Assembly: GCA_031416315.1 (NCBI GenBank)
Contig: JANOTL010000019.1
Span: 1 to 52,863 of the forward strand
DNA: 52,863 bases
Source of the DNA: Pseudomonadota bacterium
GTDB taxonomy: Bacteria; Bdellovibrionota_B; Oligoflexia; Oligoflexales; CAIYRB01
Direction: 5' to 3'
The translations under genes and the position numbers were made by a program. Every line of letters starts with the position of its first letter. Position 1 is the first letter of the stretch. Positions 2,202 through 25,485 of this stretch are shown here, piece by piece. A model generated the notes under the pieces. It was not told the origin of the DNA. It made no database searches and was given only the letters and a program-made list of their open reading frames with translations.

Positions 2202-2215
2202 TCGGGTACCGCACC

Positions 2216-5062: not shown

Positions 5063-6881
5063 TCCGTTCAATCCCTGCATCCGGCTCAGCTTTCAGGGGC
5101 CTAGCGGGAAGACCGTCCAAGGCTCGGGTAGCGCTTACGTTTGGACTCGCCGTCGCGCCCTGCGGATCGGCGTCGCGGCGCTGACGGCGCTTTATTCCCT
5201 GGGGCTTGCGGCGACCTTCAATCCGTTGATGCACATGATCGTGCTTGTTCCCATCTGGCTCGTCTCCGGGCCCATGTTGGCGAGCGCCCTTTACAAGATT
5301 TTCGTCGGCGTCGTCGACCTCAGGAGCGTGGACGGGCGCTGCCCGGATTGCGATCATGCGCTGGCCGTGCGCCGCGCTCGCCTCGCGCTGCCGATGCGCC
5401 TTGCCTGCGCGTCGTGCGGCGCTAAGATCACGGCGACCGCGACGGAGGAGATCGACTTGACCGCCATCATCGCCCAAGACAAGCCGCTGCGCCTGCACGC
5501 CCCGATGCACGTTCTTCTCCTGGGGATCGGCGTCGCGATGTTCTACGGCATCACGCAGATCGGGCCGATCTCGAGCTCTCTCGCGCTCCCCGCCACGCTC
5601 CCGAAAGTCCCGGGCCCCGGCGGCGTCGCGGTGATGAGCTCCTTGGCGCAGTTTCTCACCGCCCTCCTCGTCGTCACCGGGGCGGCGGGCCTCCTCGGCC
5701 GGCTCGCGCCGCGTTTCGGCCAGGTCCCCGTCATGGGCGAGGTCCTCGCCGGCATTCTCCTGGGCCCCTCCTTCTTCGGCTGGCTCGCGCCCGACGCGAT
5801 GCAGCTCGTCTTCCCGAAGGAAACGATGCCGGCGTTCGGCATCCTCGCGCAACTCGGCGTCATCCTCTACATGTTCGCGGTCGGTCTCGAGCTGGACGTC
5901 GACCTTCTCAAGAAGAAGGGCCGCTCGAGCCCGATGATCTCCCATGTGAGCATCATCGTGCCGCTCCTCCTCGGCGCTTCGCTCGCGATCCCACTTTACG
6001 CGGCCTATGCGCCGGTCGGCGTCGAGTTCCACGTCTTCGCGCTCTTCCTCGGGGTCTCGCTCGCCATCACGGCCTTCCCCGTGCTCGCACGCATCCTCAC
6101 CGACTCGAAGCTGGAAAAAACCTCGCTCGGCGTGCTCGCCATTGCCTGCGCCGCCGTCGACGACGTGACCGCCTGGTGCCTCCTCGCCCTCGTCGTCTGC
6201 CTCGCGACCTTCCAAGGGTTTGTGCCGGCCGCCATCACGGTGGGCCTCACGGTCTTGTTCTTCGCTTTGATCTGGCTCGTCGTAAGGCCGCTCGCCGCCC
6301 GCTACCTGCCGCGCGACGTTGAGCTGAATCGCGGGCACCTGATGCTGGCGGCGGCCTTCGTCCTCGGCTCGGCCTTGGCGACGGAGCTCATCGGCATCCA
6401 CGCGATCTTCGGCGCGTTCCTGCTCGGAGCCGCGATGCCGCGCGGAGCGCGCGTGACGCACGAGTTGAAGACGCGGTTCGCGGACGCCGTCGCGGCGCTG
6501 CTCATGCCGGCGTTTTTTGCGTACACCGGCTTGCGCACCGAGATCGGCCTCCTCTCGACGCCCGGCGACTGGCTTGCCACCTTCGCGATCATCGGCGCGG
6601 CCGTCACCGGCAAATTCGGCGGGACCTTCGTCGCGGCGCGCTTGACCGGTCACGGTGGCAGGGAGGCGGCAGCGCTCGGCATCCTTCTGAATACGCGCGG
6701 GCTGGTCGAGCTCGTTGTCTTAAACGTCGGGCTCGACCTCGGCGTCATCAGTCCCAAGCTCTTCACCATGCTGGTCCTGATGGCTTTGGTGACGACGTTC
6801 GCGACGACGCCGCTGTTGCGGTTGATGAAGGTTGCGCCGCGGAAAGCCCGCGAGCACTCCGCGCATGTCATTACAACCTGA
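5052..6881 (+). CDS. CPA2-type cation:proton antiporter with an extra N-terminal 2-TM and CxxC...CxxC domain
   Basis: GQVPVMGEVLAGILLGPS, FAVGLELD, ITAFPVLARIL, AVDDVTAW, FFAYTGLRT, LNTRGLVELVVLNVG; GTG start overlaps sucA end. Confidence 0.85.
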   Translation: MATDPFNPCIRLSFQGPSGKTVQGSGSAYVWTRRRALRIGVAALTALYSLGLAATFNPLMHMIVLVPIWLVSGPMLASALYKIFVGVVDLRSVDGRCPDCDHALAVRRARLALPMRLACASCGAKITATATEEIDLTAIIAQDKPLRLHAPMHVLLLGIGVAMFYGITQIGPISSSLALPATLPKVPGPGGVAVMSSLAQFLTALLVVTGAAGLLGRLAPRFGQVPVMGEVLAGILLGPSFFGWLAPDAMQLVFPKETMPAFGILAQLGVILYMFAVGLELDVDLLKKKGRSSPMISHVSIIVPLLLGASLAIPLYAAYAPVGVEFHVFALFLGVSLAITAFPVLARILTDSKLEKTSLGVLAIACAAVDDVTAWCLLALVVCLATFQGFVPAAITVGLTVLFFALIWLVVRPLAARYLPRDVELNRGHLMLAAAFVLGSALATELIGIHAIFGAFLLGAAMPRGARVTHELKTRFADAVAALLMPAFFAYTGLRTEIGLLSTPGDWLATFAIIGAAVTGKFGGTFVAARLTGHGGREAAALGILLNTRGLVELVVLNVGLDLGVISPKLFTMLVLMALVTTFATTPLLRLMKVAPRKAREHSAHVITT

Positions 6882-6999
6882 TAATATTTGTATGAAATCT
6901 ATATCGATTCAGTGATTGCAATTGACCTGGTTAAATATAGCGTGTAAATGGGCGCCATCGAACTTATCTGATGATTTTCATCAATTTTCGGAGGCGACC

Positions 7000-7539
7000 A
7001 TGATCAAGTCGATTATTGGTATGTGTTTGGTCATGCTGACCACAGGCTGCGGTACCGGACAGAAGGGCAAAGCGGACCAAGAGGACAAAGCGCCGAAGTC
7101 GAACCCGGTCGCGGCTTCGACCACGGAAATGGCCATCCTGCGCGCGCCGATCGGCAGCGACGGGGAGCCGATCCTCGAGAACGCAGAGCTCCGCACGCAG
7201 ATTACGGCCAAGGACCTGAGCGCCACCGATCTCGCCGACGCCTTCGCGTCGGCCGGAGTCGCAACCGATGCCAAGGCCGTCGAAAGCGTCGACGAGCTCG
7301 ACCGGGATACCTCGACGCAGTCCTGGTACGTCCTGCCCTGGCGCGCGCGAGTCGCGAACGGCTACCCTGTCCGTCGCGGCCCCTACCTGCTTCCATGGCG
7401 TCGCGCTGTGGCCAATGGCTACGCGCCCTCCGGCGGCTACCTGTCGCCCTATCGCCAGCATGTCTCCAACTCCTACGGCTACTACACCTACACCTACACC
7501 TACTCAGCACCGCACAGCACTTACTCCTCGTATAACTAG
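7000..7539 (+). CDS. lipoprotein of unknown function with Tyr-rich repeated C-terminus
   Basis: GGAGG upstream of ATG 7000; MIKSIIGMCLVMLTTGC lipobox-like signal; three YxxP[WY]RxxV[AS]N[GS]Y repeats. Confidence 0.75.
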   Translation: MIKSIIGMCLVMLTTGCGTGQKGKADQEDKAPKSNPVAASTTEMAILRAPIGSDGEPILENAELRTQITAKDLSATDLADAFASAGVATDAKAVESVDELDRDTSTQSWYVLPWRARVANGYPVRRGPYLLPWRRAVANGYAPSGGYLSPYRQHVSNSYGYYTYTYTYSAPHSTYSSYN

Positions 7540-7892
7540 ACCCTGGCGCTTTCGCGCCAGGGTCTATCCCGAGCGGAGCGAGGGATCTCGCGGCGCTACC
7601 CATAGCGTCCGTCACGCGACCCTCGCTCTCGACGGATTCCCCGGCAATTTCCCGATCGCTTGATCATGCAGACTTTGCCTTCCCTGCTCGCTGGGCCCTG
7701 GTCAGTTGCCGCAGATTGAAGCCGAGGACAGAGGCGTACCCGGCGGCCAGTGTTGCCGCGTCGCTCTGCATGCGACTTCTTCCGAGCTGCCCCCCATGAT
7801 GGTGCCGGGAAGCGGCGGCGCAGGTGTAATCGCCGAGATCCCTCGCTCCGCTCGGGATAGACCCTGGCGCTTTCGCGCCAGGGTCTAGTTAT
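7532..7892. repeat. REP/MITE-like element with 59-bp terminal inverted repeats, each containing an identical 30-bp hairpin
   Basis: 7532-7590 is the reverse complement of 7834-7892 except the 4-nt loop; TAGACCCTGGCGC-TTTC-GCGCCAGGGTCTA occurs at 7537-7566 and 7858-7887. Confidence 0.9.
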
Positions 7893-8533
7893 TGGCAGCT
7901 GCTGCTTTGCGGATAAACCCGGCAGTAAGCCGGCGTCCCTTCACACGTCGACCACGACGGATTTGCCTCGCACTGCGCGCGCGTGCCGTTGCACGTCGAC
8001 CAGCTCGGGTTCGCCTCGCACTGCCCCTGGGTGCCGTTGCAAGTCGACCAGCTCGGGTTGGATTCGCACTGGGCGCGCGTGCCGTTGCACGTCGACCAGC
8101 TCGGGTTCGACTCGCACTGAGCTTCCGTGCCGTTGCAGGTCGACCAGCTCGGATAGGCTTCGCACTGCGGACGCGTGCCGTTGCACGTCGACCAGCTCGG
8201 ATTCTGATCGCAGCTGCCGCTGGAGCAGGCGCTGGCGTTCGGATCGTAGTCGCAATGCGCCGGCGTCCCGCGACAGGACGAGTCCCACGGCTGCTCTTCG
8301 CAGAAGGCACGCGTTCCGGCGCACTCCGGGGCGCGCGGAAAGCGCTCGCAGCGGTCGCGCTGCGCGTCGTCGTCGTAGCTGCGGTAGTCTGCGGTCGGCC
8401 GGCCGCCGCCCGGCTCCGAGACGTAGCCGGTGTAGCCGGAGTACGAGTCGTAAGGCGTGTAGCCACGAGTCGCGAATGCGGACGTGCTGAGGACGGCGAG
8501 CGCGAAAGTGAGGGCGAGGACGTGACGGATCAT
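7889..8533 (-). CDS. secreted cysteine-rich tandem-repeat protein (ten CX8C units)
   Basis: Signal peptide MIRHVLALTFALAVLSTSAFA; 20 Cys arranged as ten CX8C pairs; GGAG upstream of ATG. Confidence 0.85.
   Translation of the reverse strand: MIRHVLALTFALAVLSTSAFATRGYTPYDSYSGYTGYVSEPGGGRPTADYRSYDDDAQRDRCERFPRAPECAGTRAFCEEQPWDSSCRGTPAHCDYDPNASACSSGSCDQNPSWSTCNGTRPQCEAYPSWSTCNGTEAQCESNPSWSTCNGTRAQCESNPSWSTCNGTQGQCEANPSWSTCNGTRAQCEANPSWSTCEGTPAYCRVYPQSSSCQ
7925..8212 (-). repeat. 6 x 48-bp intragenic tandem repeat encoding CxxxPSWSTC[NE]GTxxx
   Basis: Recurring gtgccgttgca.gtcgaccagctcgg at 48-bp period, in frame within the 7889-8533 CDS. Confidence 0.92.
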
Positions 8534-8658
8534 GGCGAAGCTCCAAGCGCGGGGGCGAGAGGGGGTTCGTGTGTTCCGTCAGCGAGTAGCACGGTGGGGG
8601 TTTAGGGAACAATCCGCCAGAAGAGCGGGGCTCGGCCCGACCACAAACGGCCCGGCGC

Positions 8659-9039
8659 CTAGTGAAACGTATCCGGATGCCGCAGAAAAAAGAGCGGGAT
8701 CCGCGCACTGAACCGCCGCTCCCCGATCACCATCAGATAGCTGCCGCGCATGTTCCCCGTCGGCGTCCGCAAAGGGCACGCGCTCGTATACTCGAAGGTC
8801 TCGCCCGGCTCGAGCACCGGCTGCTTGCCGACGACGCCGTCGCCGCGCACTTCCTCGACCTTCGCGCTGCCGTCGGTGATGATCCAATGGCGCGTGAGGA
8901 GCTGCACCTTCGACACGCCGCGGTTGGCGATGGTCACGGTGTAGCCGAAGAGGAAGAACGGCTCCTTCGGGTCGGATTGCTCCGGCACGTAGAAGGGTTT
9001 GACCGTGACCTCGATGTCTTCCGTAGTTTCGACGTACAT
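8659..9039 (-). CDS. apaG: ApaG protein
   Basis: QLLTRHWIITD, VRGDGVVGKQPVL, FEYTSACPL, TPTGNMRGSY. Confidence 0.93.
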   Translation of the reverse strand: MYVETTEDIEVTVKPFYVPEQSDPKEPFFLFGYTVTIANRGVSKVQLLTRHWIITDGSAKVEEVRGDGVVGKQPVLEPGETFEYTSACPLRTPTGNMRGSYLMVIGERRFSARIPLFFLRHPDTFH

Positions 9040-9067
9040 GCGCGGCGCTCTCCCCGCGGATTCGCCG

Positions 9068-9497
9068 TCAGTATGTCATGGCCCAATCGGGAATCAAAGG
9101 GTCTTTGCCGAGCCGGCGGGCGCGCACGTCGAGGTAGGCGCGAAAGGCCGCGTGCTTCACGGCGTCGACCTTCGGGTTTTGCCCGACCGGGCGCAGTTTC
9201 AGGCCCATTTTGCGCAGCTTGTGGTTGCCGCGATGGATCGTCTCGGTCCGCCGCGTCTCTTCGGTGCAAGACGTCATGGAGATCGTGATCGACACGTTGT
9301 CCAAGTTATTCACCAGGTGCGGCGCCGTGAACGGCACCGCGTTCGGCGACTGGATGAAGATCCAGAAGGAGCGGGAGCTCGGCCAGATTGTGCCGCACCG
9401 CCTGGATGACTTTGCGGTCGAAGGCGGCGCGGTCGAAATCGATCGCGGGTTTTGGCGCCGGAAATTGGGAAGACGCGGTGACCGTGACGACGGACAT
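9068..9497 (-). pseudogene. internally deleted, frameshifted cupin/JmjC-like oxygenase remnant
   Basis: Frame A (ATG 9497): FDRAAFDRKVIQAVRHNLAELPL. Frame B: WIFIQSPNAV|PFTAPHLVNNLDNVSITISMT...IHRGNHKLRKMGL. These resemble N-, mid- and C-terminal blocks of cupin-like proteins, but the HxD/E segment is missing and the total is only 430 bp. Confidence 0.6.
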
Positions 9498-9561
9498 CGG
9501 GGGCGTATCCCCACGGAGGGATGGGAAGAAGCGGGGCGAAGGACGCACATTCTAACGCACG

Positions 9562-9650
9562 TTCTATTAAATTTCAATAGAAACCGATTGTAATTGCATG
9601 TCGAGTCGGCACGCACCATCACAAGTCATTGAAATTCTTATAAATTCCAA
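9562..9650. promoter_or_regulatory. AT-rich divergent control region with two imperfect palindromes
   Basis: TTCTATT-N7-AATAGAA at 9562-9582; TTGAAATT-N6-AATTCCAA at 9629-9650. Confidence 0.4.
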
Positions 9651-9732
9651 GGCGTTCTCCACGTGTTACGATGAATCCAAGATATCCTCCCTGTGCTCCG
9701 GCCTTTCCCCGACCCATGCTCTGAGGTCTGCT

Positions 9733-12700
9733 GTGTCGAGCGCACGCCTGCCGGTCGCCTACGATCCGTTTTCTGGAACCGGACCCTTGGCCCTCGTCCA
9801 TCCGACGACCGAGGCGCAGAAAGAAGTCTTCACCTCCGCGCACTGGGGCCGCGACGCCTCCTGCGCTTACAACGAATCCTTTTCGCTGCGGTTCCGGGGC
9901 GCCCTCGACGTCGAGCGCCTACGCTCGGCGCTCGCGACCGTCACGTCCCGGCATGAGGCCCTGCGGGCCGCCGTGACACCTGACGGCATGAGCGCCTGCG
10001 TCGCTGAAACCCTGATCCAGTCGCTGGCGTCCGATGACCTCTCGGCGCAGTCTTCGGCCGATCGTGGCGCGGCCGTCGCACGCGCTCAGGACGAGGAGGC
10101 CGAGCGCGAATTCGATCTCGTGTGCGGGCCTCTTTTCCGCGTGCGCCTCCTCCGCCTCGCTGCCGACGAGCATCACTTTATATTCTGCGCGCATCACCTG
10201 GTGTGCGACGGCTGGTCGATCGCCGTCGTCGTGAAGGAACTGGCGGCCATCTACGGCGGCCGCGGGGACGAGCTGGAACCCGCGATCCCATATAGCGACT
10301 ACGCCCGTCGCGAGCGCGAGCGCCTGGCATCCGGCGGCGGCGCCGAAGACGAAGCCTTTTGGCTTTCCGTGTTCCGCGGCGGCGCCCCGGCCTTGGACCT
10401 GCCGCTCGATCAAGCGCGCCCGCCGGTGCGGCCCTACCACTCGCGGCGCGTCGACCTGGATCTTCCCCCGGAGCTGATCAAACGCCTGAAGGCTTTCGGC
10501 GCGAAAAACGGCTCGAGCTTCTTCACCGTGCTGATCGCCGGCTACTACGCGCTGCTCAACCGCTGGTCGGGCGCGGAGGAGATCGTCGTCGGCGTGCCCG
10601 CGGCCGGACAATCGATCGAAGGCGAAGCGACGCTCGTCGGCCACTGCGTCAACCTCTTGCCGATCCTGGCGCAGCCGACGGCGGGGAAATCGTTCGCCGC
10701 CTTCCTGAAAGAGGTGCGGGCGGTGGTTCTCGACGCCTTCGACCACCAGCAATTCACTTACGGCAGCCTCCTGACGAAGCTTTCGGTCGAGCGCGATCCG
10801 AGCCGCCTGCCGCTCGTCAGCGTCATCTTCAACCTAGACCAGGGCCTTTTCGAATCCGCTTATGCGTTCGAAGGCCTAGAGACCGCGTTCACCACGACGC
10901 CACGGCGCTTCGAGAACTTCGAGCTCTTCTTCAACGTCATCGAGATCGGCGGCAAGACGACGATCGAGTGCCAGTATCTGGAGGGGCTTTTCGACGAAAA
11001 GACGATCACCTCGCGCCTCGAGAGCTACGTGCGTCTGCTCGAATCCGCCGTGGCCGCGCCGGAGACTCTGCTCGGGAAGTTGCCGATGGCGCCCGTGCGC
11101 GAGGAGGCTCTCTTCGCCCAGTGGAACCGCGCCGCGATGGCGCCGGCCCCGAAAGCCCAGACGATCCACGGGCTGATCGGCGCGCAGGCGCGCGCGACCC
11201 CGGATCGGATCGCCGTCCGCTGCGGCGAGCGTCAGCTCACGTATCGCGAGCTGTGGGACGACGCTGGCCGCGTCGCGCAGCGACTGCGCGCGATGGGCGT
11301 GAAGCCCGGCGTGATGGTCGGGATCTCAGTCGAGCGCTCGCTGGCGATGCTCTCCGCCTTGATCGGCATCATGCGCGCCGGCGGCGCCTACGTGCCGCTC
11401 GACCCGACCTTACCGAAAGACCGCCTCAAGTTCATGCTCGAGGACACCGAGGCCTCCGTCCTGATCCTGACCGACGAGACCATGGACGTGGTGCCAGAGG
11501 CCTTCGCGGCAAAAATGATTCACCTGGACCGCGAGCGCGAGACGCTTAAAATGCTCTCGCCCTTGGCCGAGGAGCCTGAGGCGCAGGGCGCCGCCGCCGG
11601 ACCCGAAGACATCGCCTACGTCATCTTCACCTCCGGCTCCACCGGGCGTCCGAAAGGCGTGCTCTGCCCGCATCGCGGCGTCGCGAGCCTTCTCGACTCG
11701 ATGACGCGCTGGCCGGGGCTCGGCCTTCACGACAAGCAGCTCGGCGTGACCACGATCTCCTTCGACGTGCACGTTCCCGACCTCTATCTGCCGCTCGTCG
11801 TCGGCGCCGAGCTCGTGATCGCGACGAAGGATGACACGCTCGAAGGCGAGCGGTTGAAGGATCTCCTGGACCGGCGCAAGATCACCTTCATGCAAGCGAC
11901 GCCGGCGACCTGGCGCATGCTCCTCGCCGTCGGTTGGCGCGGCGGCCAGCACCTGAAGATCGTCTCCACCGGCGAGCCTCTGCCGCGCGAGCTCGCAGCG
12001 GAGCTTCTGCCGCTCGTCGGCGAGCTCTGGAACATGTACGGCCCGACGGAGACGACGATCTATTCTACAGGCTGTCGCATCGAAGACGCCGGCAAGCCGA
12101 TCCTGATCGGCAAGCCGGTCGCGAACACGACGCTCTTCGTCGTCAACGATGTGGGCGAGGCCTGTCCCATCGGCGTTCCCGGCGAGCTCCTGATCGGCGG
12201 CGTCGGCGTCACCCGCGGCTACTTGAAGCGCGAAGACCTCACGGCGGAGAAGTTCGTCTCAGGCCCCGGCGGCGCGCGCGTCTACAAGACCGGCGATTTG
12301 GCGCGCTTTTTGCCGTCGGGAGACGTCGAGTGCCTGGGCCGCAACGACCATCAGGTGAAAGTGCGCGGCTTCCGCATCGAGCTCGGAGAGATCGAGGCCG
12401 AGCTGGCGAAGGTCCCGAGCGTGCGCGCCGCCGTCGTCGGCGTCCGTGACCGCGTTGCGGGCGACCGGCGCCTCGTCGCCTGGATCGTCTCCGCGGGGAA
12501 CGCGGCGCCCGAGGCCATGGCGTTGAAGGAAGCCCTGCGCGCCTTCCTGCCGGAATACATGGTGCCGCAGCATTTCCTGAGCATCGACCTTCTACCTTTG
12601 ACGCCGACCGGCAAGGTCGACCGCAAGAAGCTGCCCTCGCCCTTCGGCGCCGGCGGGCGCGAGACGGTCCCGGTCCCGGGCACCGGCGCGAAGCTCGCGC

Positions 12701-14763
12701 GCCGCGCGCCGCAGACGCCGATGGAGCTCTCCGTCACGCAGCGAAGGGTCTTGGACCTCGAGCAGTCGATGCCGGGCCTCGCGCTCTACAACCTCCCGAC
12801 CGGCTTTAGGATCTTCGGGCCGTTCCAGATCGAGGCCGCCTCGCGCGCGCTCGACCAGTTCGTCAACCGTCACGAGGCCCTGCGCACGGCGTTCCGCCGC
12901 ACGGCCGACGCCGCGGAGCCGGTCGTCTCGCCCTCGGTGAGCTTCCGTCCCGAGATGGTCGACCTCACGAGCTCCGCGCGCGAGGCGCAAGAGGCGCGGA
13001 TGAGCCGCGATTTCCACGACACCGCGCACCGGCCCTTCGATCTGACGCGGGCGCCCCTCTTCCGCGCGACGATCTACAAGATCGCCGAGCAAGAGCACGT
13101 CCTCTTCATCATGGCGCATCAGGCGACCTGGGACGGCTGGTCCTTCGACATCTTCGTCCGCGAGATGTCGTCCCTCTACGAGGCCGCAGCGAACGGCGGC
13201 GTCGCGACGCTTCTGCCGCTGGAGCTCGGCTTCGGCGACTACGCGCTTTGGCACAATCGCGCCTTGCGGGGCTCCGTGATGAAGGAGCAGCTCGCATATT
13301 GGCGCGCGAAGCTAGAGAATCCGCCGTCGCCGCTCGCCATGCCCACGACCCGGGCGCGGCCTGCGCGCTTCACCTTCAAAGGCCACTCGGTCTCGTTCTT
13401 CATGGCGCGCGATCTCGCCAACGCGCTGACGACCGTGGGGCGCGAGGTGGGCGCGACCTTCTTCCATGTGCTCCTCTCTGCCTACAAGATCCTGCTGTCG
13501 CGGCGGACGGGCGCCTCGGAGCTCGTCGTCGGGACGCCGGTGCGGGGACGCGAGGGGCGCGAGGTCGAAAGCATCGTCGGCCCCTTCTTGAACTACATCG
13601 CCGTCCGCAGCAAGGTCGAGGCGAGCGAGCCGTTCACGGATTTCCTGCGCAAGGTGCGGCTCGCGGCGCTCGAAGGCATGGGTCACGACGCCCTTCCCTT
13701 CGACCACCTGGTCCAGGAGCTCGGCTTGGACCGGGATCTGGCGCGCACGCCGCTCTTTCAGGCGATCTTCTCGTTCCAGGACGCGCGAGCGCGCAACACC
13801 ACCTTCGGCAAGCTGCCGTTCAAGCAGGTCAACATCGAGCCGCTCACCGTGCCCGCCGAGCTCAATTTCTGGGTGAAGGAGTCGAACGAGAACTTGATGG
13901 GCAGCATGAACTACGCGTCGGATCTGTTCGACGAGGAGTCGATGCGGGACTTTCTGGAGTGCTACGACGCGCTCCTTAGAGCCATCGTCGCCGAGCCGCG
14001 GCTCGCGACCGGGAAGCTCGCGGTCACGCCGGCCGAAGCCGAGGCGAGCGAAGGCTGCCGGCAGGTCGGCGCCTGGCTGACGGGGATTCCGGAGATCGAG
14101 TCGACGCTCGGCGGCCTCGAGGCGATCAAGGAGGCGGCCGTGGCGCTGCAATACGACGAGACCGGCACGCCACGCCTGGCGGCGTATTTCTCGCTCGCCG
14201 CCGGCGAGTTCGTGACGGCCTCCGATCTGCGGCGGCATGTGCGGCTGAAGCACGGCGAGGCGCTGGTGCCGCACGCGTTCATCGAGGTGGAGACCATGCC
14301 GCGGCTGACGATCGAGGGCGCTAGCGGCAAGATTGACAAGAGCAAGCTGCCGCCGGCGTACAGGCGCCTCGACGTCGCCGGAGGCGGCGAGCTTGGCGGT
14401 CAGGTCGACGGTGGCCGGCCGAGAACGAAGGCCGAGCTGGCGCTCGCTTTGATCTGGAAAGAGATGCTCGGGGTCGACGAAGTGTCGACGCGCGGGAACT
14501 TCTTCGAGCTCGGCGGGCACTCGCTCCTCGCGATCCAGATGATCGGCAGGGTCGAGCGCGAGCTGGGCGTGAAGTTGCCGCGGATGGCGGTGACCCTGAA
14601 TACCTTGGGACAGATCGCGAAGACCCTGGGCATGGATGAGGCGACGGCCGTGGCGCCGCCAGCGGCCGCCGTCGTGGCGACGCCAGCAAAGGCGGCCCCG
14701 GCCACCTCGGCGCCGCCCGCGAAGGGCATCGGCAAACTCTGGTCGAAGCTGCGCGGGGGCTGA
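9733..14763 (+). CDS. non-ribosomal peptide synthetase, C-A-C*-Asub-T, no thioesterase
   Basis: C1 HHLVCDGWS (10192); A motifs YVIFTSGSTGRPKG, NMYGPTE, YKTGD, QVKVRGFRIELGEIE, TGKVDR; C2 HQATWDGWS (13117); isolated A C-terminal subdomain (GKIDKSKL); T FFELGGHSL (Ser 14521). GTG 9733 with GAGG preferred over ATG 9598. Confidence 0.92.
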   Translation: MSSARLPVAYDPFSGTGPLALVHPTTEAQKEVFTSAHWGRDASCAYNESFSLRFRGALDVERLRSALATVTSRHEALRAAVTPDGMSACVAETLIQSLASDDLSAQSSADRGAAVARAQDEEAEREFDLVCGPLFRVRLLRLAADEHHFIFCAHHLVCDGWSIAVVVKELAAIYGGRGDELEPAIPYSDYARRERERLASGGGAEDEAFWLSVFRGGAPALDLPLDQARPPVRPYHSRRVDLDLPPELIKRLKAFGAKNGSSFFTVLIAGYYALLNRWSGAEEIVVGVPAAGQSIEGEATLVGHCVNLLPILAQPTAGKSFAAFLKEVRAVVLDAFDHQQFTYGSLLTKLSVERDPSRLPLVSVIFNLDQGLFESAYAFEGLETAFTTTPRRFENFELFFNVIEIGGKTTIECQYLEGLFDEKTITSRLESYVRLLESAVAAPETLLGKLPMAPVREEALFAQWNRAAMAPAPKAQTIHGLIGAQARATPDRIAVRCGERQLTYRELWDDAGRVAQRLRAMGVKPGVMVGISVERSLAMLSALIGIMRAGGAYVPLDPTLPKDRLKFMLEDTEASVLILTDETMDVVPEAFAAKMIHLDRERETLKMLSPLAEEPEAQGAAAGPEDIAYVIFTSGSTGRPKGVLCPHRGVASLLDSMTRWPGLGLHDKQLGVTTISFDVHVPDLYLPLVVGAELVIATKDDTLEGERLKDLLDRRKITFMQATPATWRMLLAVGWRGGQHLKIVSTGEPLPRELAAELLPLVGELWNMYGPTETTIYSTGCRIEDAGKPILIGKPVANTTLFVVNDVGEACPIGVPGELLIGGVGVTRGYLKREDLTAEKFVSGPGGARVYKTGDLARFLPSGDVECLGRNDHQVKVRGFRIELGEIEAELAKVPSVRAAVVGVRDRVAGDRRLVAWIVSAGNAAPEAMALKEALRAFLPEYMVPQHFLSIDLLPLTPTGKVDRKKLPSPFGAGGRETVPVPGTGAKLARRAPQTPMELSVTQRRVLDLEQSMPGLALYNLPTGFRIFGPFQIEAASRALDQFVNRHEALRTAFRRTADAAEPVVSPSVSFRPEMVDLTSSAREAQEARMSRDFHDTAHRPFDLTRAPLFRATIYKIAEQEHVLFIMAHQATWDGWSFDIFVREMSSLYEAAANGGVATLLPLELGFGDYALWHNRALRGSVMKEQLAYWRAKLENPPSPLAMPTTRARPARFTFKGHSVSFFMARDLANALTTVGREVGATFFHVLLSAYKILLSRRTGASELVVGTPVRGREGREVESIVGPFLNYIAVRSKVEASEPFTDFLRKVRLAALEGMGHDALPFDHLVQELGLDRDLARTPLFQAIFSFQDARARNTTFGKLPFKQVNIEPLTVPAELNFWVKESNENLMGSMNYASDLFDEESMRDFLECYDALLRAIVAEPRLATGKLAVTPAEAEASEGCRQVGAWLTGIPEIESTLGGLEAIKEAAVALQYDETGTPRLAAYFSLAAGEFVTASDLRRHVRLKHGEALVPHAFIEVETMPRLTIEGASGKIDKSKLPPAYRRLDVAGGGELGGQVDGGRPRTKAELALALIWKEMLGVDEVSTRGNFFELGGHSLLAIQMIGRVERELGVKLPRMAVTLNTLGQIAKTLGMDEATAVAPPAAAVVATPAKAAPATSAPPAKGIGKLWSKLRGG

Positions 14764-14765: not shown

Positions 14766-15584
14766 TTGCAGGCGAGCTACTTTGGCAAATCCGAGGCGCC
14801 GCTTTTCGGCGTGCACTATCCGCCGGCAAAGGGGCAGAAGCGCGTCGGCGTCCTCCTGTGCTACCCGGGTCCCGAGGAATACATGCGGGTGCACTGGGCC
14901 TACCGGAATCTCGTGCAGCAGCTCGGGCGGCACGGCTTCCACGTGTTCAAGTTCGACTATTACGGCACCGGCGACTCGGCCGGCGCGATGGGCGCGGGCG
15001 ACCTGGCGCGCTGGCGGCGAGACGCCGTCACGGCGCTCGAGGAGCTCCGCGATTTGAGTGGCGTCTCGCGCCTTGCCTTGGTCGGCACGCGCCTCGGCGG
15101 CGCCATCGCCGCGACGCTCGGCGAAGAGCTTTTGCGGGCGGAGCGGCCGCTGACGATCGACGCGATGGTGCTTTGGGACCCGGTCGTCTCCGGCGTCGCC
15201 TATCTGGGCGAGCTATCCGCGCTGCAAGACCGGCGCATTCTGAACAGCCGCAATCCGCTCGAGCAGCACGTGAACGAGAATTGTCCGGAGCTCCTCGGCT
15301 ACCCGCTATCGAGGCAAATGGAGCAAAGCCTGCGCGCGCTCGACTTGCGCGGTCAGGGCAAGAGCGCCGCAATGACGCCGGCGCGGCGGACGATCGTCGT
15401 CGGCTCGGAGGAGCTCACGCAGTACTCGGATCTGGCGAAGCGCTTCGGCGAGGGCGTCGAGACCGGCTTCGTCCACGTCGGCGAGGCCTGCTTCTGGCGG
15501 GTCCAAGAGCTTTTGGAGCAAGCCATCCTGCCCAGCCGCATCGTGCAGGCGGTCGCCGACCAGCTGGCGAGGACGTGCCCATGA
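14766..15584 (+). CDS. alpha/beta-hydrolase-fold protein lacking the Ser nucleophile (resembles exosortase-system hydrolase 2)
   Basis: LFGVHYPP, EEYMRVH, FDYYGTGDS, GTRLG at the nucleophile elbow, LWDPVVSG; TTG start 2 nt after NRPS stop. Confidence 0.75.
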   Translation: MQASYFGKSEAPLFGVHYPPAKGQKRVGVLLCYPGPEEYMRVHWAYRNLVQQLGRHGFHVFKFDYYGTGDSAGAMGAGDLARWRRDAVTALEELRDLSGVSRLALVGTRLGGAIAATLGEELLRAERPLTIDAMVLWDPVVSGVAYLGELSALQDRRILNSRNPLEQHVNENCPELLGYPLSRQMEQSLRALDLRGQGKSAAMTPARRTIVVGSEELTQYSDLAKRFGEGVETGFVHVGEACFWRVQELLEQAILPSRIVQAVADQLARTCP

Positions 15585-16408
15585 GGGAGAAGGTCTTCGG
15601 CTTCGGCCCTGACGCGCGTCTCGTCGGGATCGCTTCCGAGCCCGTCGACCGCGACGCCGCGAAGGGGCGGCCGGCGATGCTCTTCGCCAACACCGGCATC
15701 TCCCACCGCGTCGGCCCTTTCCGCCTGAACGTCGAGCTGGCGCGTCGCGTCGCGGCCATGGGCTTTTACGGCTTCCGCTTCGACTTCTCGGGGCTAGGCG
15801 ACAGCCGTCCGGCGGAAGACGACCGCGACGACTATACGCGCGCCATCGACGAGGCGCGCCTCGCGATGGACCTGATGACCAAAAGGACCGGCGTCGAGCG
15901 CTTCGTGTGGTTCGGCCTCTGCTCCAGCGCCGACAAAGGCCACCACATCGCCCTGAGCGACCCACGCATCGTCGGCGCCGTCTTCATCGACGGCTACGCG
16001 AATCCGACGGCGGGGTTCAAGATGAGACACTGGCTGCGCTATTTCCAATGGAAAAGGATCAAGGTCTTCATCCGCACCAAGCTTTCAACGCTTCGGGCAA
16101 AGCTGACGGCTGCGAAGCCACAGACGCCTCCGCCTTACAAAGCGATCATCGCCAGCCCCGCGCCGGAGAAGATCGGCGCCGAGCTCAAGACCCTTGCCGA
16201 TCGCGGCGTCGAGCAGCTCCACCTGTTCACGATCTCAACCGACTACGTTTACAACTACGAGGGTCAGTTCTGGGATCTGTACCCGATGCTGCGCGGTCAC
16301 GAGCGTGTGCAAACGGAGCGGTATCCGGAGGCGGATCACACGTTGTCGTTCCGGTCGCTGCAGCTCCTCTTCATCGACAGGGTTTGTCGGTGGATGGAGC
16401 GGTTCTAG
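15581..16408 (+). CDS. alpha/beta-hydrolase with Cys at the nucleophile elbow (resembles exosortase-system hydrolase 1)
   Basis: HRVGPFRLNVELAR, RFDFSGLGDS, GLCSS, ADHTLS; ATGA overlap with previous gene. Confidence 0.78.
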   Translation: MREKVFGFGPDARLVGIASEPVDRDAAKGRPAMLFANTGISHRVGPFRLNVELARRVAAMGFYGFRFDFSGLGDSRPAEDDRDDYTRAIDEARLAMDLMTKRTGVERFVWFGLCSSADKGHHIALSDPRIVGAVFIDGYANPTAGFKMRHWLRYFQWKRIKVFIRTKLSTLRAKLTAAKPQTPPPYKAIIASPAPEKIGAELKTLADRGVEQLHLFTISTDYVYNYEGQFWDLYPMLRGHERVQTERYPEADHTLSFRSLQLLFIDRVCRWMERF

Positions 16409-16430: not shown

Positions 16431-16973
16431 TCAAGGCTTCACTTTGTAGGAAACGACGCAGGTGCCGGCGATGTAGTCGTGCATGGCCCGTTTTCGTACG
16501 TCGAAAAGCACCAGCAAGAACCCGAGGCCGAGCGTCAGCACGGAGAGCGCCCGGCCGACGGTCTCGCGCAGGAGCACCGGGCCGAAGCCGAGCGCCGCGC
16601 CGAGGTCCTCGCGCACGACGCGGATGCCGACGATGCGCTTTCCTAGCGTCTGGCCCCAGATTAAGGTCGGCGCCAGGAGGTAGAGCATAATCGGGATCGC
16701 CGTCAGCGCCGCGGTCAGGATCCAGTACTCGGTGGTGTGCCCGTAAGCGTGCAGCTTCTCGAGATAGCGCTGAAACGGCAGATGGCAGAGCACGTCGAGC
16801 GGCCCGGCGAAGGTGACGTCGAGCGTCAACGCGTACCAGCGCAGGACGAAGCCGGCCGGCTGATAGACGGAGAAATCCTCGGCCGATCCGTGCTGGAGCA
16901 CCGCCTGCGGCGTCGCGCGCGGCAGCGCATCCTGCGTCGCGCGCGGCAGCGCGTCCTGGGCCTGCGGGTTCAT
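16431..16973 (-). CDS. RDD family membrane protein
   Basis: AGFVLRWYALTLD, GQTLGKRIVGIRVV, RAMHDYIAGTCVV. Confidence 0.88.
   Translation of the reverse strand: MNPQAQDALPRATQDALPRATPQAVLQHGSAEDFSVYQPAGFVLRWYALTLDVTFAGPLDVLCHLPFQRYLEKLHAYGHTTEYWILTAALTAIPIMLYLLAPTLIWGQTLGKRIVGIRVVREDLGAALGFGPVLLRETVGRALSVLTLGLGFLLVLFDVRKRAMHDYIAGTCVVSYKVKP
16911..16958. repeat. 2 x 24-bp tandem duplication in RDD N-terminus (QDALPRAT x2)
   Basis: cgtcgcgcgcggcagcgcatcctg / cgtcgcgcgcggcagcgcgtcctg, 23 of 24 identical. Confidence 0.85.
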
Positions 16974-18616
16974 GCTGCCTCTCTTTCACGGTTCCAGAGC
17001 TCGATCATCGGGACGAGCCGCGAGCCCTGATGGTGCCGGGCGAAACTCGCCAACGCGCTCGACGCGGAGGCGTCGTAGCGCAGGCATGCCAGGACCTGCA
17101 GCGCCGTCGCCTCGACTCCCGCGCGCCGCGTCGAGGACGGAAACCGCACGATGAAGAGATCGTAGAGGCGGAGCGCCAAGATGGGTGCGCCCTGCGTGGC
17201 GCAGAAGTCCGCGAGCGCCAGCATATGCAGCTGCCCGAGCCGCGCCAAGCAAGTGCGATACGGCAAGCTCATCGGGATCTGCGCGAGCAAGCGCCCCGCA
17301 AAGAGGAGCTGCCCGTTGCGCACGCTGATCGCGCAGATCGAGGACAGATGCTCGTTGATGAACGCCCGCCCTTTTTCGACGAGATCGCCGTCCTCGTTCG
17401 GCTGCGCCTTTTGCGCCCAGCGGAGGAACGTGCCGCAGCCAATTTCGAGCGCATGCACGTTGTCCGGGTTGACGCGGATCATCTCGCCGGCGTCCTCGAG
17501 CACCTTCCGCACGTCGCGACCCTGTCCGAGCTTTTGCAAGTCCTGAATCTCGCCCGAGTAGACGAAGGGCAGCGGCAGCGGGAAGATCTGCGCCGTCACC
17601 CAGGCGACCAGGGCGCCGATCACGAACCCGCCGAGATGGGCAACGTGCGCGACCCCCGCCTCCTGCAACTCGCCGAAGCCGTTGTCGAGCCCGCCGATCA
17701 CGTCGCTCAGGATGAATATCAGCGGGAAGACGTACATGACCGGCGCGCGGTAAGCCGTGCCGGCGTATAGCTTCCGCGGCAGCCACACCAGGAGCCGCAT
17801 GTTCTGCTTGAAGAAAAAGACGAAGAAGAGCCCCATCGCCGCGCTGACGTTCGCCGAGCCGCCGAGCGCGATCGTGTCGCCCGACGAGAAGAACGCGGCA
17901 TGCAGCGCCATGCCGGCGGTCCCGCCCACCAAAAGCGTGGCGAGGTAGGCCCACCGGCTCGTCCTTTGCTCGGCGTAGATGCCGAAGACGACGAGCATGA
18001 AGATGTTGCTGGCCAGGTGAAAGAAGCCGCCGTGCCGCACTTGCGCCGCGACCAGCGACGCCGGGGTGATGTAGGACCGCACCAGGCATTGGTTTTCCTT
18101 GCAGATGTCGCGCAGCCCGCGGCGGTAGCTGGCGATCGCGGAGGCATAGGTCTTGTAGCTCTTGAGCCCCGAGAACGGCTTCTGCTTCTGCCGCGACCCG
18201 TCGAGGAACTTCCACAGGATGTCTTTATAAACGAAGCACCGTTTGGAATCGCTGCAGTCGACGAGCTCCTCGCGCACCGCGTCCGCGGCCTCGTGCTCGG
18301 CGTCGAGCTTCGCCGCCAGCGCGTCCTCGAGCTCCGGCGCCGGCGCTTCGCCCTTCCCCGGAAAACCCGTCCACACGAGGACTGAGTACCGCTTGCACGC
18401 CTCGAGCTCGCCCTTCCGGCTCGTGCAATAGTCGACGAAGAGGTCGCGGGCGCTGTCGCGCACGCCGGTCTCGGCGACGACGTTGAAAATGCCGCCGAAA
18501 ATGCGGTCGTCTGAGCCGTCGAGGATGGCGACCAGGGCCCAAACGAGGACGAAGGCCAAAGTGACCCAAGGGGGTCTCTTCAACTTCGTTCCCAATCCGA
18601 GCGGCAGCACGATCAC
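16970..18616 (-). CDS. rhomboid intramembrane serine protease with large Cys-containing insert and helical C-terminal domain
   Basis: MIVLPLG...PWVT start, HGGFFHLASN, GGSANVSA (catalytic Ser), AHVAHLGG (catalytic His); ATGA overlap with RDD gene. Confidence 0.82.
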   Translation of the reverse strand: MIVLPLGLGTKLKRPPWVTLAFVLVWALVAILDGSDDRIFGGIFNVVAETGVRDSARDLFVDYCTSRKGELEACKRYSVLVWTGFPGKGEAPAPELEDALAAKLDAEHEAADAVREELVDCSDSKRCFVYKDILWKFLDGSRQKQKPFSGLKSYKTYASAIASYRRGLRDICKENQCLVRSYITPASLVAAQVRHGGFFHLASNIFMLVVFGIYAEQRTSRWAYLATLLVGGTAGMALHAAFFSSGDTIALGGSANVSAAMGLFFVFFFKQNMRLLVWLPRKLYAGTAYRAPVMYVFPLIFILSDVIGGLDNGFGELQEAGVAHVAHLGGFVIGALVAWVTAQIFPLPLPFVYSGEIQDLQKLGQGRDVRKVLEDAGEMIRVNPDNVHALEIGCGTFLRWAQKAQPNEDGDLVEKGRAFINEHLSSICAISVRNGQLLFAGRLLAQIPMSLPYRTCLARLGQLHMLALADFCATQGAPILALRLYDLFIVRFPSSTRRAGVEATALQVLACLRYDASASSALASFARHHQGSRLVPMIELWNREREAA

Positions 18617-18782: not shown

Positions 18783-20438
18783 ATGACGCTTCGTGCACGG
18801 CTCTTCACGTCGCTCGCCTTTTTGGCGGCTCTGACGGCCGCCTGCGGTCCGACGTCCTCGTCCTCTTCCACGGCGAGCGCGCCGGCCGTGCCGGCCGTGA
18901 CGGAAGCGGTCCAAGGCGGCATCCGCCTGGTCCGCGCCGAGAGCGAGCGCCTGCTGATCGAGATCACGGTGCCGCATCCAGAGCTGAAGGAGACGACGCT
19001 CGCCGGCGAAAAGCACTGGCAGCTGGCCGTCGGCGGCTTCGCCAACGGCGGCGCGCCCGGAGCTCCCTCGCTGCCGGTCGAGCGCGCGTTGATCGCCGTG
19101 CCGGAAGGAAAAGTCGCCACCCTCGAGCTCGTCGACCAGACGGTGCTGCAGGAGACGAAGCTGGACGCGCCCGTCGCCTTCGTGGAGGCCCACGCCGCCT
19201 TGCCCGCCTCCACCGTCATGAGCCTCGAGGCCTACGCCGCGGCCAGCAATCAGCCGCGCGTGACCCTCGAGACGACGAGCCACATGGGCGCGGCGCGCGT
19301 CTCGCGCCTCGTCGTGCGCCCCGTGAGCTACGACGTCGCCAATAAGCGACTCAGCTGGGCCTCGGTCGTCACCGCGATCGTGCGCTTCACGCCGGCGCCC
19401 GCGAGCGCCGCCACTCCCGCGCCGCACGCGAGCTTGGCGATCGCCCGGTCGCTCGTCTTGAATCCGGAGGCCCTGCGCCAAACCCCGCCGGCCGCGGGCA
19501 ACGTCGACCTGATCCTCGCGCACGAGTCCTACCGCGCGACGCTTGCGCCCCTGATCCGATTCAAAGAAGGGCGTGGCCGCGAGGTCCGCACGCGCTACTT
19601 CACCAATGCGACGGCCGCCTCGGTCACCGAAGCGATCGGCGCCGAGTACCGCGCGACGCGCGCGCCGACGCACGTCATCCTCGTCGGCAGCATCGACCAG
19701 ATCCCCTCGCACCGGGTCGACGGCATTTGGTCGGACTACGCCTACACGCAGCTCGACGGCGGCGGCGTTCCCGACGTCTCCCTCGGCCGCATCCCGGCGC
19801 AGACGCCGGCGGAGCTCGCGGTCTACGTGCGCAAGGTGATGTCGCGCACCACCGCGACCCGCGACTCCAACCGCTTCCTCCTCACGGCCGGCAACGACAC
19901 CGGTTTCGGCTGCCCGCAAAACGTGGCCCGCGTCGGCGAGCTCGTGAGCCAGTATCGATCGAGTGTCCAGAGCACGCAGCTCTACATGGCCGACGGCGCC
20001 ACCCGGGACGAGGTCTTCGAGGCCTACAACGCCAACCCGAACGTCGTCATCTACGACGGCCACGGCGACCGCCTCGGCATGTCGGAGATCCCGCTCGAGA
20101 TCGACGACCTCCCGAGCTTCACCAACACGGTCTACCCGATCATCCTCGACATCGCTTGCGAGAACGCCCGCTGGCCGTCGACCGGCGCCACCGTGCGCAA
20201 CTTCGCCGAGTCGACGCTCCTCATCGACGGGCGCGGCGCGGCCGGCATCGTCGCCGCGGGCGGCTTCTCCGGCGGCCACGAGTTCTTCCAGCGCATGGGC
20301 ACGAGCATGGGCCGCGACGCGCAGGACCCGGTCCTAGGCGAGATCGGCTCCGTCGTGCACGCGGCCAAGTCGATCGCCGGCGACGAAGACAATTATATGT
20401 TCGGCTACTACGGGGACCCGTCGCTCACGACTTTCTGA
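18783..20438 (+). CDS. peptidase C25 (gingipain-like) lipoprotein
   Basis: LTAAC lipobox; propeptide-like GAPGAPSLP; VILVGS, SDYAY, PDVSLGRIP, YDGHG (His), IACEN (Cys), YYGDPSL end. Confidence 0.82.
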   Translation: MTLRARLFTSLAFLAALTAACGPTSSSSSTASAPAVPAVTEAVQGGIRLVRAESERLLIEITVPHPELKETTLAGEKHWQLAVGGFANGGAPGAPSLPVERALIAVPEGKVATLELVDQTVLQETKLDAPVAFVEAHAALPASTVMSLEAYAAASNQPRVTLETTSHMGAARVSRLVVRPVSYDVANKRLSWASVVTAIVRFTPAPASAATPAPHASLAIARSLVLNPEALRQTPPAAGNVDLILAHESYRATLAPLIRFKEGRGREVRTRYFTNATAASVTEAIGAEYRATRAPTHVILVGSIDQIPSHRVDGIWSDYAYTQLDGGGVPDVSLGRIPAQTPAELAVYVRKVMSRTTATRDSNRFLLTAGNDTGFGCPQNVARVGELVSQYRSSVQSTQLYMADGATRDEVFEAYNANPNVVIYDGHGDRLGMSEIPLEIDDLPSFTNTVYPIILDIACENARWPSTGATVRNFAESTLLIDGRGAAGIVAAGGFSGGHEFFQRMGTSMGRDAQDPVLGEIGSVVHAAKSIAGDEDNYMFGYYGDPSLTTF

Positions 20439-24455: not shown

Positions 24456-24648
24456 TCGGACCTCTGCCGCAGGCGCTGTTCGGCGCGCACGAGCGCGCGC
24501 GCCTGCGCGCCCGCGGCGCGCGCACGCTCGACCGAAGCGCTCCCGATCTGGCCGGTAGCGCCCGTTACGAAGAGCACGGCGGGCAAAGAGCTCATCTCGA
24601 AAGTTTAACACATTGGCATTACTAAAGAAAAACAGGTATTGCTAAGGG

Positions 24649-25485
24649 GTGAGCTCCACTCGACTACCGACCCTGCCGCAGCCCTCGCCGGAGCGCCTCG
24701 CCTTGGCCGACGGCACGGCCCGCGCCGTGCGCCGTTGGGGACCGCGCGAGCACCCGACGTTTCTCTTCCTCCACGGTATGGAGAGCCACGCCGGCTGGTT
24801 CGACGCTGTAGGCCGCGCCCTCGCGGCGCGCGGCCTAGGCGCCGTCGCGTATGACCGCTGCGGCTGGGGCGCCAGCGACGGCGAGCGCGGCCGCCTGGAC
24901 GCGCCGCAGCAGGCCTTGGCGGAGCTCGCCCTCGTGCGCGCCGCGGTCTTCGGCGACCGAGGCCCGCACCTCGTCGGCCTTTCGTGGGGCGGCCTCCTGG
25001 CCTTGGCGGCGCGCCTCGCGAGCCCTGGCGCCTTTGCTTCGCTGACGCTGCTGGTGCCCGCGATCTTCCCGCGACGGCGCGTCGCCGCCAGCGCCAAGGT
25101 CAAGGCCGCGCTCGCCGGCATTCCGGCCCTTCGCACCCTTCTGCCGCTGAAGGTGAAGCTTCCCATCGAGGACCGTGATTTCTCGCAGGGGTCCGAAGCG
25201 CTCGCCTTCGTCGGCCAGGACCCGCTGCGCGTGCGCGAGGTGCACGCCGGATTTCTTCTGACGACCTACAGAATGCAGCTCGAGGTCCGCGGCGCCGCGC
25301 AGGTCGAAAAGCCCGCGACCCTTCTTCTCGCCGCCGAGGACGCGCTGATCGACGGCCCGAAGACGGAGCGCTTCGCGCGCGCCTTGGGCCTTTCCTGCGC
25401 GACTTTGCCGCACACCCGGCATTCCCTCGTCTTCGACGCACCCGACGGCGTCGCCGACCGTCTCGCGGCCCAGGTGAGCCTATGA
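24649..25485 (+). CDS. alpha/beta hydrolase, lysophospholipase/monoacylglycerol lipase-like
   Basis: LHGMESHAGWF, DRCGWGASDGERG, GLSWGG, EDALID, RHSLVFD. Confidence 0.85.
   Translation: MSSTRLPTLPQPSPERLALADGTARAVRRWGPREHPTFLFLHGMESHAGWFDAVGRALAARGLGAVAYDRCGWGASDGERGRLDAPQQALAELALVRAAVFGDRGPHLVGLSWGGLLALAARLASPGAFASLTLLVPAIFPRRRVAASAKVKAALAGIPALRTLLPLKVKLPIEDRDFSQGSEALAFVGQDPLRVREVHAGFLLTTYRMQLEVRGAAQVEKPATLLLAAEDALIDGPKTERFARALGLSCATLPHTRHSLVFDAPDGVADRLAAQVSL

Follow-up and report, generated by a model that had tools for sequence, protein, structure and literature searches.

How can a nonribosomal peptide synthetase (NRPS) work when its only adenylation domain has no carrier behind it and its only carrier stands about 600 residues further on? 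The question is raised by a gene on contig JANOTL010000019.1 of assembly GCA_031416315.1, from a Pseudomonadota bacterium that GTDB places in the Oligoflexales; "the window" here means the whole stretch of that contig that was analysed, positions 1 to 52,863. The protein, called the window NRPS below, is read as C1-A1-C2-Asub'-T, where C is a condensation domain, A an adenylation domain, T a carrier, and Asub' the C-terminal subdomain of a second A domain whose core is missing. We lean towards the view that this is an intact and conserved enzyme, derived from a two-module ancestor of the form C-A-T-C-A(dead)-T, that likely operates as a single module.

Domain layout of the NRPS

The gene is intact over 5 kb, in a frame that is open on the + strand from 9598 to 14763. 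An alternative in-frame ATG at 9598 adds 45 residues to the protein and gives a 1721-residue reading, to which the Pfam residue numbers used here refer; homologues begin just ahead of the DPF motif, as does the 1676-residue protein of the database record (Table 1). Pfam finds two condensation stretches (E 2.3e-170) and the order C1, A1, a linker of 34 residues with no carrier, C2, an isolated A C-terminal subdomain and T. The original prediction, made from the letters alone, had described just this order, and the Pfam domain call recovers every element of it, nearly at the coordinates it gave. Where it had counted about 30 residues without a GGxS carrier after KVDRKKLP, there are 34 between the A10 motif of A1 and the start of C2 (12616-12717), with neither GGxS nor a PP-binding match. 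The HQATWDG that it had read in C2 is present, and C1 has the canonical HHLVCDG; behind C2 there is, as it had said, one small A subdomain (only AMP-binding_C) and a single PP-binding match. It had named a carrier behind A1, or a full second A domain, as what would speak against this layout, and Pfam detects neither. The piece behind C2, searched alone, matches just AMP-binding_C, at profile positions 1-71 of 76 (nt 14092-14304, E 3.6e-7; residues about 1500-1570), and no AMP-binding core was found ahead of it. Likewise no thioesterase (TE) or reductase domain is detected by Pfam within the gene, as predicted, but the next gene, in the TE position (14766-15584), encodes an alpha/beta-hydrolase fold.

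With an HHxxxDG condensation domain (C1), an A domain and a GGxS carrier, the protein is recognizably a modular NRPS. A1 has the core motifs A3-A10, including Asp235 and the A10 lysine (TIGR01733, 408.6 bits; the motifs seen are TSGSTGRPKG, NMYGPTETT, YKTGD, GRNDHQVKVRG and GKVDRK), and its GK(V/I)DR is invariant across the family described below. The usual C-A-T order per module, with the carrier directly behind its own A domain, is what the window NRPS does not have.

Table 1. Positions in the window of the NRPS gene, its domains and the two genes behind it.
Feature	Position	Strand	Remarks
NRPS gene	9733..14763	+	GTG start at 9733; 1676 aa (database record P0002)
C1 condensation domain	9802..11106	+	PF00668, 277.6 bits; HHLVCDG at 10192-10212
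A1 core (AMP-binding)	11182..12225	+	PF00501, residues 529-876, E 5.7e-86; A3, A5, A7 intact
A1 C-terminal subdomain	12388..12630	+	PF13193, residues 931-1006; A10 lysine in GKVDRKK, 12610-12630
A1-C2 linker, former T1 site	12631..12717	+	LPSPF, then a variable stretch; no PP-binding match
C2 condensation domain	12718..14037	+	PF00668, 297.8 bits; HQATWDG at 13117-13137, second His replaced by Gln (Gln1130)
Asub', relic of second A	14092..14367	+	A8 helix to A10; GKIDKSK at 14326-14346; PF13193, E 3.6e-7
T, only carrier	14446..14625	+	PF00550, residues 1617-1676, E 1.1e-12; GGHS at 14512-14523 (Ser1597 of the 1676-aa form)
hydr2-like gene, TE position	14766..15584	+	PF12146; TIGR03101, 71.7 bits; Arg at the nucleophile site (GTRLG)
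hydr1-like gene	15581..16408	+	TIGR03100, 62.8 bits; Cys at the nucleophile site (GLCSS), His in DHTLS

A family with the same junctions

A homologue search with residues 1010-1721 returned three proteins that are similar in length, span the entire query region and have the same Pfam domain set with one carrier each: P0015 (1663 aa; 54% identity over the query region, 57% overall), P0053 (1870 aa; 44% over the query region, with an alpha/beta-hydrolase domain fused at its C-terminus) and P0058 (from genome G011; 44% over the query region). P0158 (1686 aa) and P0122, a fragment limited by its contig, came from an exhaustive search of representatives. The architecture whose presence elsewhere had been proposed as a check is therefore found in P0015, P0053, P0058 and P0158, and in fragments P0122 and G009. 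The junction between the end of C2 and Asub' is matched in one piece by only three of the best 150 HMMER matches among 1.84 billion representatives, a list dominated by giant NRPSs, and a word search on the junction region gave P0015 as its sole match. A profile scan of genome contigs with the C2-Asub'-T alignment, which keyed on generic patterns (HHxxWDGW, NFFExGGH), yielded no member of the family, only 78 ordinary NRPS loci with identities of 27-39%. Among 131 genomes of the phylum the junction occurs in five, all in the window's own bacterial family: the source genome itself (G000) and four of the eight genomes of one other genus.

Both the A1/C2 and the C2/Asub' junctions fall at identical alignment columns in P0015, P0053, P0058, P0122, P0158 and G009, which stem from independent assemblies of varied sources and species. 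This all but excludes a collapsed assembly. The source genome is a 226-contig assembly, and repeated NRPS sequence in a metagenome bin might have led to two modules being mis-assembled into one, but the recurrence of both junctions at the same columns in different species tells against that, and the divergence between C1 and C2, and between the two A subdomains, is too great for such a collapse; we give such an artefact practically no weight.

Conservation and selection

Relatives at 39-57% identity to the window NRPS keep intact frames. Five of them are full-length (P0015, P0053, P0058, P0158 and G007); G008, G009 and L095 have open frames that run, or may run, into the end of a contig, and the frame of P0122 is contig-limited and intact. 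In the same-genus genome G001 the two downstream genes hydr1 and hydr2 are found at 73% and 64% identity, at a contig end, with the NRPS not assembled. Between family members T is best conserved (62-75% identity), followed by the A1 core (50-65%), C1 (53-60%), the A1 subdomain (52-59%), C2 (39-56%) and Asub' (34-55%); linkers are at 17-44%, the A1-C2 linker being the least conserved segment of all (17-40%). The truncated C2 of G007, to which we return below, is 24-29% identical to full C2 domains.

The ratio of nonsynonymous to synonymous substitutions (dN/dS), another check that had been proposed, comes from one close DNA pair only, the sister-type genes of G007 and G008 (dS about 0.32), and is 0.18 for the whole gene, with 0.14 for C1, 0.14 for the A1 core, 0.08 for Asub' and 0.10 for T, as against 0.24 for a dead first carrier and 0.38 for the C2 remnant. 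From these values the gene is under purifying selection, and in this pair Asub' is as constrained as the catalytic domains while the truncated C2 is relaxed. The odd layout thus appears to be kept by selection, not to be a stage of decay.

The original prediction had allowed for a decaying gene. This would be a two-module NRPS that has become functionless and is being lost. The list of what has gone is indeed long, comprising T1, the core of A2, the catalytic His of C2, any TE in cis and a conserved A10 lysine in the relic. But the 5-kb frame is intact in the window, in the five full-length relatives, in the three open frames that run, or may run, to contig ends and in fragment P0122, all with the same junctions; dN/dS lies at 0.08-0.14 in C1, A1, Asub' and T; and the three-gene operon is conserved. 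We consider decay very improbable and have set that option aside.

Origin by module collapse

Stages of the presumed reduction are preserved among the relatives. In the two sister-genus genomes G007 and G008, and in metagenome contigs L095 and L096, the order is C1-A1-T1(dead)-C2 C-lobe-Asub'-T. The T1 of G007 and G008, placed between A1 and the C2 remnant, is still recognizable to Pfam, with its serine lost (GGDED), and in G007, G008 and L095 the N-lobe of C2, which bears HHxxxDG, is deleted so that only the C-terminal lobe remains. The junction at which the A2 core was lost is common to the window's family and to the G007/G008 type. A fuller version is seen in the metagenome orthologue L110, which reads C-A-T-C(HHAIWDG)-A(dead)-T followed by hydr2 and hydr1; its A1 code is of the glycine type, and its second A region is full length but without motifs A3, A5, A7, A8 and A10. 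In front of the same hydr2/hydr1 pair one also finds plain C-A-T (L148, L134), C-T (L105) and longer NRPSs.

In a quick maximum-likelihood tree of C domains, the C2 of the window's family falls in a nine-row clade (SH-aLRT, the Shimodaira-Hasegawa-like approximate likelihood-ratio test, 99) with C domains of L110, L101, L103 and P0189, all members of which precede a dead or deleted A domain. In the same tree the family's C1 groups with the C1 of L110 and those of G007 and L095 (support 90). From this grouping and the layout of L110 it follows that the ancestor was C-A-T-C-A(dead)-T, with A2 already dead. The descent of the window NRPS from such a two-module enzyme by in-frame losses, which the original prediction had offered as one of its two options, is thus supported, both by the T1 relic of G007, G008 and L095 and by the full layout in L110. 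T1 was removed or inactivated after the A2 core had gone, in two independent events: in the window's lineage it was deleted, and in G007/G008 it lost its serine. The second module was not autonomous in the recent past, A2 having died before its core was deleted.

P0189, a metagenome protein of 1642 aa with the order C-A-T-C-A(dead), was considered as an ancestor and rejected; its C2 is just 35% identical, and it is used here only as a further member of the clade of C domains that stand before a dead A. In its C domain the motif is HNIIWDG, and its second A has no core motifs. The last 100 residues of the protein resemble an out-of-frame reading of a T domain, which makes a frameshift or an error in sequencing likely.

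C2 and the A-subdomain relic

C2 is a complete fold, modelled mostly with a predicted local distance difference test score (pLDDT) of 70-95, with all other C motifs present and with Foldseek matches to TycC6, Txo2, HtmB2-CT and DhbF at E about 1e-37. Its second His is the variable point: across 11 members of the C2 clade this residue is H in six, Q in three, G in one and N in one, the full HH being retained in P0053, G009, P0058, P0158, L110 and L101. Catalysis by C2 would appear to be dispensable, the N-lobe being deleted in G007, G008 and L095 and the second His being Q, G or N in five of the 11 clade members, and the C2 of the window's clade has probably ceased to catalyse condensation. The "inactive C spacer" of the earlier description therefore holds in part: the window's clade has lost the second His and the sister clade the N-lobe, but full C2 is conserved almost as well as C1. 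On account of that conservation, C2 may keep some catalytic or binding role.

Might C2 still be working? The enzyme would then carry out two condensations, or one condensation and a C2-catalysed release onto a soluble amine, with the single T visiting C1 as acceptor and C2 as donor or acceptor, and with Gln replacing His in positioning the nucleophile. The complete, confidently modelled fold with all other C motifs fits such a role, as do the near-C1 level of conservation, which extends to the HQ clade, and the HH of the six proteins just named. It is harder to square with the deletion of the N-lobe in G007, G008 and L095, where purifying selection still maintains C1, A1, T and the hydrolase pair, or with the swapping of the second His in three ways (Q, G and N) within one C clade; moreover there is no cis donor carrier once T1 is gone, and plain C-A-T versions serve the same hydrolase pair. 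We regard a working C2, whether for condensation or for release, as rather unlikely.

Asub' is modelled at pLDDT 85-95 and is 34-39% identical to ordinary A subdomains. Its A10 lysine position reads K, R, K, absent, absent, K, R, S and S across nine members; this lysine is not conserved. Asub' cannot be part of an adenylation site.

The downstream alpha/beta-fold pair

The lack of a TE is probably compensated by a conserved pair of alpha/beta-fold genes directly behind the NRPS, here called hydr2-like and hydr1-like (Table 1), the second of which starts within the stop of the first (4-nt overlap, ATGA). Synteny of the two behind the NRPS holds for each of the four family loci. In NCBIfam they best match the exosortase A system-associated hydrolases 2 and 1 (TIGR03101 and TIGR03100), with scores far below those for membership (71.7 vs. 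a cut-off of 202.75 bits, and 62.8 vs. 168.45). The hydr2-like Arg aligns with the Ser of 9w30 and is found in 5/5 orthologues and 53/62 metagenome relatives, while the hydr1-like Cys and His align with the Ser and His of 9pjb and are kept in 79/80 and 54/54 metagenome relatives, respectively. In P0053, G009 and L142 the hydr2-like domain is fused to T.

Eighty metagenome loci were gathered with the hydr1 alignment (L094-L173). Hydr2 lies just upstream of hydr1 in 61 of them, the other 19 having too little upstream sequence. An NRPS carrier stands within 1 kb upstream of hydr2 in 30 of the 61; 14 have enough flank but no carrier and in 17 the flank is too short, giving 30 of 44 informative loci. 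Where an A domain directly precedes that carrier its code is of glycine type in eight of 13 loci. The pair thus recurs beside NRPS termini, most of which end in glycine. In the phylum, hydr1-like genes occur in 31 of the 131 genomes. A search of the literature found no published function for the hydr2/hydr1-like pair or for the TIGR03100 and TIGR03101 families. Two further observations concern hydr1-like matches: in one bacterial family the match sits inside open frames of about 1500-2650 aa, and on G046:C84 (L181) an NRPS carrier on the same strand precedes it by about 850 nt.

Substrate and loading of the carrier

The 10-residue code of A1 is DVPQVTMIYK in the window NRPS and DVPQLTMVYK in P0015, and DILQLGMVWK in the other six of eight family members. 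The latter is one conservative change from DILQLGMIWK, published as a Gly signature (PMC12283262). The window's clade has altered both its A pocket and its C2 motif. The 584-bit match of A1 to LgrA was discarded as a clue to glycine; it is the sum of two ordinary 290-bit matches. C1 keeps HH in all seven family members that cover the motif, and the GGHS of T is present in 9/9.

In the mechanism that we propose, A1 as the sole adenylation domain would activate a small alpha-amino acid and load it onto the only carrier, T, 600 residues downstream, and C1, with its HHLVCDG, would join to it a donor delivered in trans as acyl-CoA, as acyl-ACP (acyl carrier protein) or on another carrier. The hydr1-like Cys-His enzyme would take the product off T, and the hydr2-like protein, in which Arg stands at the nucleophile position and which some relatives carry fused to T, would serve as its adaptor. 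C2 and Asub' would be kept as a folded scaffold that holds T in the native C-A-T geometry. We infer the loading of the distal T by A1 because A1 is the only A domain and T the only live carrier. The G007-type enzyme, with its dead T1 and half of C2, could presumably work only by this single-module route, and the existence of plain C-A-T followed by hydr2 and hydr1 (L148, L134) is consistent with single-module logic.

Several points weigh against this reading. The key step, loading of the distal T by A1, is predicted from sequence. C2 is kept nearly as well as C1 (39-56% vs. 53-60%), with an identity ratio of about 0.96 even in the HQ pair formed by the window NRPS and P0015, where a mere spacer should drift like the G007 remnant; four of seven family members keep HH in C2; and Asub' is the least conserved folded part in deep comparisons (34-55%). 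The dN/dS values come from genes of the sister type and not from the clade of the window NRPS, and the C-domain tree comes from a quick maximum-likelihood search with SH-aLRT as its only support. The A1 codes were read by hand from motif anchors, and that of the window agrees with the Gly code at only five of ten positions. C1, for which a donor in trans is proposed, looks LCL-like rather than starter-like, its best PDB sequence matches being of LCL/DCL type (TycC6, Txo1/2), and T was modelled poorly by AlphaFold (pLDDT 30-50).

It may also be asked whether T is loaded by A1 at all. T could be charged in trans, or only receive a chain, with A1 serving another carrier or freeing an aminoacyl-AMP for carrier-independent use. 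The 600 residues or so that separate T from A1, and its tether to a foreign A subdomain, would favour this, and the genome has another gene containing A and T, a hybrid on contig C218. A1 and T are, however, both strongly conserved together in every family member, the dead T1 of G007 and G008 leaves T2 as their only carrier, and the operon has no free-standing carrier gene that is conserved. For Sib1 it has moreover been proposed that one A domain charges further carriers in cis (PMC2644324). We think it improbable that T is charged otherwise, and retain loading by A1 as the preferred reading.

Neighbouring genes and the exosortase lead

No exosortase gene is present at the window locus. The source genome has a single PF09721 exosortase-family gene, on another contig (G000:C135:14677-15474). 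Exosortase matches occur in four of the five genomes of the window's family with an assembled operon vs. none of the seven others, though related genomes are not independent samples, and in 7/131 genomes of the phylum. G001 has the hydr pair and no exosortase match in a genome that is 82% complete. A general link between hydr1-like genes and exosortases fails in bacterial family f15, where a hydr1-like gene is found in 19/22 genomes and an exosortase in 0/22, and we keep it as a lead only. A subset of N-acyl amino acid synthases is reported to be genetically linked to PEP-CTERM/exosortase systems (PMC4897644, citing Craig et al. 2011); speculatively, such a link would fit an acyl-glycine product.

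In the source genome the only condensation domains at E 1e-10 or better are C1 and C2, and there are two matches to phosphopantetheinyl transferases (PPTases). Contig C218 carries at 2115-10277 (L093) the hybrid mentioned above, a 2720-aa protein unrelated to the window NRPS with a weak C-like region, A, T, ketosynthase, acyltransferase, T and a class-III aminotransferase, and a PPTase match lies at C218:14486-14686.

Upstream of the NRPS the window has about 2.7 kb (6900-9600) that hold only open reading frames without a Pfam match, at slightly lower G+C (0.64); the four family loci show no conservation of this region ahead of the NRPS. Behind the operon are a 548-aa rhomboid-domain protein (16970-18616, - strand) and a peptidase C25-like protein (18783-20438, + strand); the rhomboid gene is syntenic in G009 (L088, about 6160-7700), not in G011 or G007. 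Further on, 22782-24611 (- strand) encodes a 609-aa protein of the bacterial GH3 family (acyl-acid amido synthetase type), which adjoins an alpha/beta hydrolase (24649-25485) and an enolase-superfamily gene (25482-26564).

Comparison with known systems

Interrupted adenylation domains have a methyltransferase, ketoreductase or oxidase domain inserted between A8 and A9. The window NRPS resembles them in that a large foreign domain separates an A core from an A C-terminal subdomain with T behind it. An interrupted A domain has one such subdomain, after the insert, whereas the window NRPS has two; since A1 owns a complete A8-A10 subdomain, and since a T1 relic persists in G007 and G008, the layout points to a two-module collapse and not an insertion.

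The X domain of glycopeptide synthetases is a C-like domain that has no condensation activity and recruits P450s. Structures of it (PDB 4tx2, 4tx3 and 6m7l) are among the matches of C2, and the likeness lies in a complete condensation fold with an altered HHxxxDG that is kept in an NRPS for a non-catalytic role, in C2 a probable one. In sequence, however, C2 is closer to ordinary LCL/DCL domains (TycC6, Txo1/2).

In yersiniabactin HMWP2 a module without an A domain is charged by another A domain. Modules of WS9326A without A domains are likewise reported to be served by A domains in trans (PMC7539972). Common to these and the window NRPS is a carrier that receives its substrate from an A domain placed elsewhere than directly before it; in the two known systems the A domain is wholly absent and the serving one has its own T or stands alone, whereas the window NRPS retains a relic that is under purifying selection in the one pair compared.

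Besides such A-less modules, the closest parallel is Sib1, the ferrichrome synthetase of Schizosaccharomyces pombe, which has a degenerate A domain and extra T-C units and whose orphan carriers have been proposed to be charged in cis by another A domain (Bushley et al. 2008; PMC2644324). Like Sib1, both the C2-Asub'-T part of the window NRPS and L110 have a module with C and T but an A without core motifs, and glycine is concerned. The loading module of Sib1 keeps its own T and its dead A is full length, whereas in the window NRPS the first module has no T and only about 90 residues of the A2 subdomain are left; and Sib1 is fungal, with release by a terminal C domain, whereas the window system is bacterial and small and would release its product by a separate hydrolase pair.

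The exosortase A system-associated hydrolases 1 and 2, both annotated as 'hypoth_equivalog', are two adjacent, unlike alpha/beta-fold proteins found by an AMP-forming ligase and a carrier. They share this arrangement with the hydr pair, whose partner is an NRPS and not a ligase plus ACP.

The exact C1-A1-C2-Asub'-T architecture was not found described in the literature searched. What is new is a first module without a carrier, an A subdomain that is retained and constrained without its core, and a preserved series of collapse stages.

Implications

The engineering of NRPSs assumes that an A domain passes its substrate to a carrier tethered directly to its own C-terminal subdomain. The window NRPS departs from that layout, its only live carrier standing about 600 residues from its only A domain, behind a whole C domain and a foreign A subdomain. 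Its relatives represent stages of the collapse, from a dimodule with a dead A2, through a form with a dead T1 and half a C2, to one with neither T1 nor A2 core, and plain C-A-T enzymes exist alongside. Together they offer a test bed for how far an A domain can reach to a carrier, for what use a retained A subdomain is to the carrier, and for the keeping of a C domain as scaffold only. The widespread Cys/Arg alpha/beta-fold pair, kin to exosortase-associated hydrolases 1 and 2, is a candidate off-loading device for NRPSs.

A broader reading, which we put forward as tentative, is that a C domain with an optional catalytic His, a dead or truncated A domain and a T, combined with the Arg/Cys pair, form an undescribed device by which small NRPS products, mostly ending in glycine, are handed off; the window NRPS would be its extreme form. 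If this is true, a live A domain would charge a carrier across a complete, non-catalytic C domain. Asub' might then, no more firmly, be the docking handle of the carrier, and in the window's family the device may feed an exosortase-type surface pathway.

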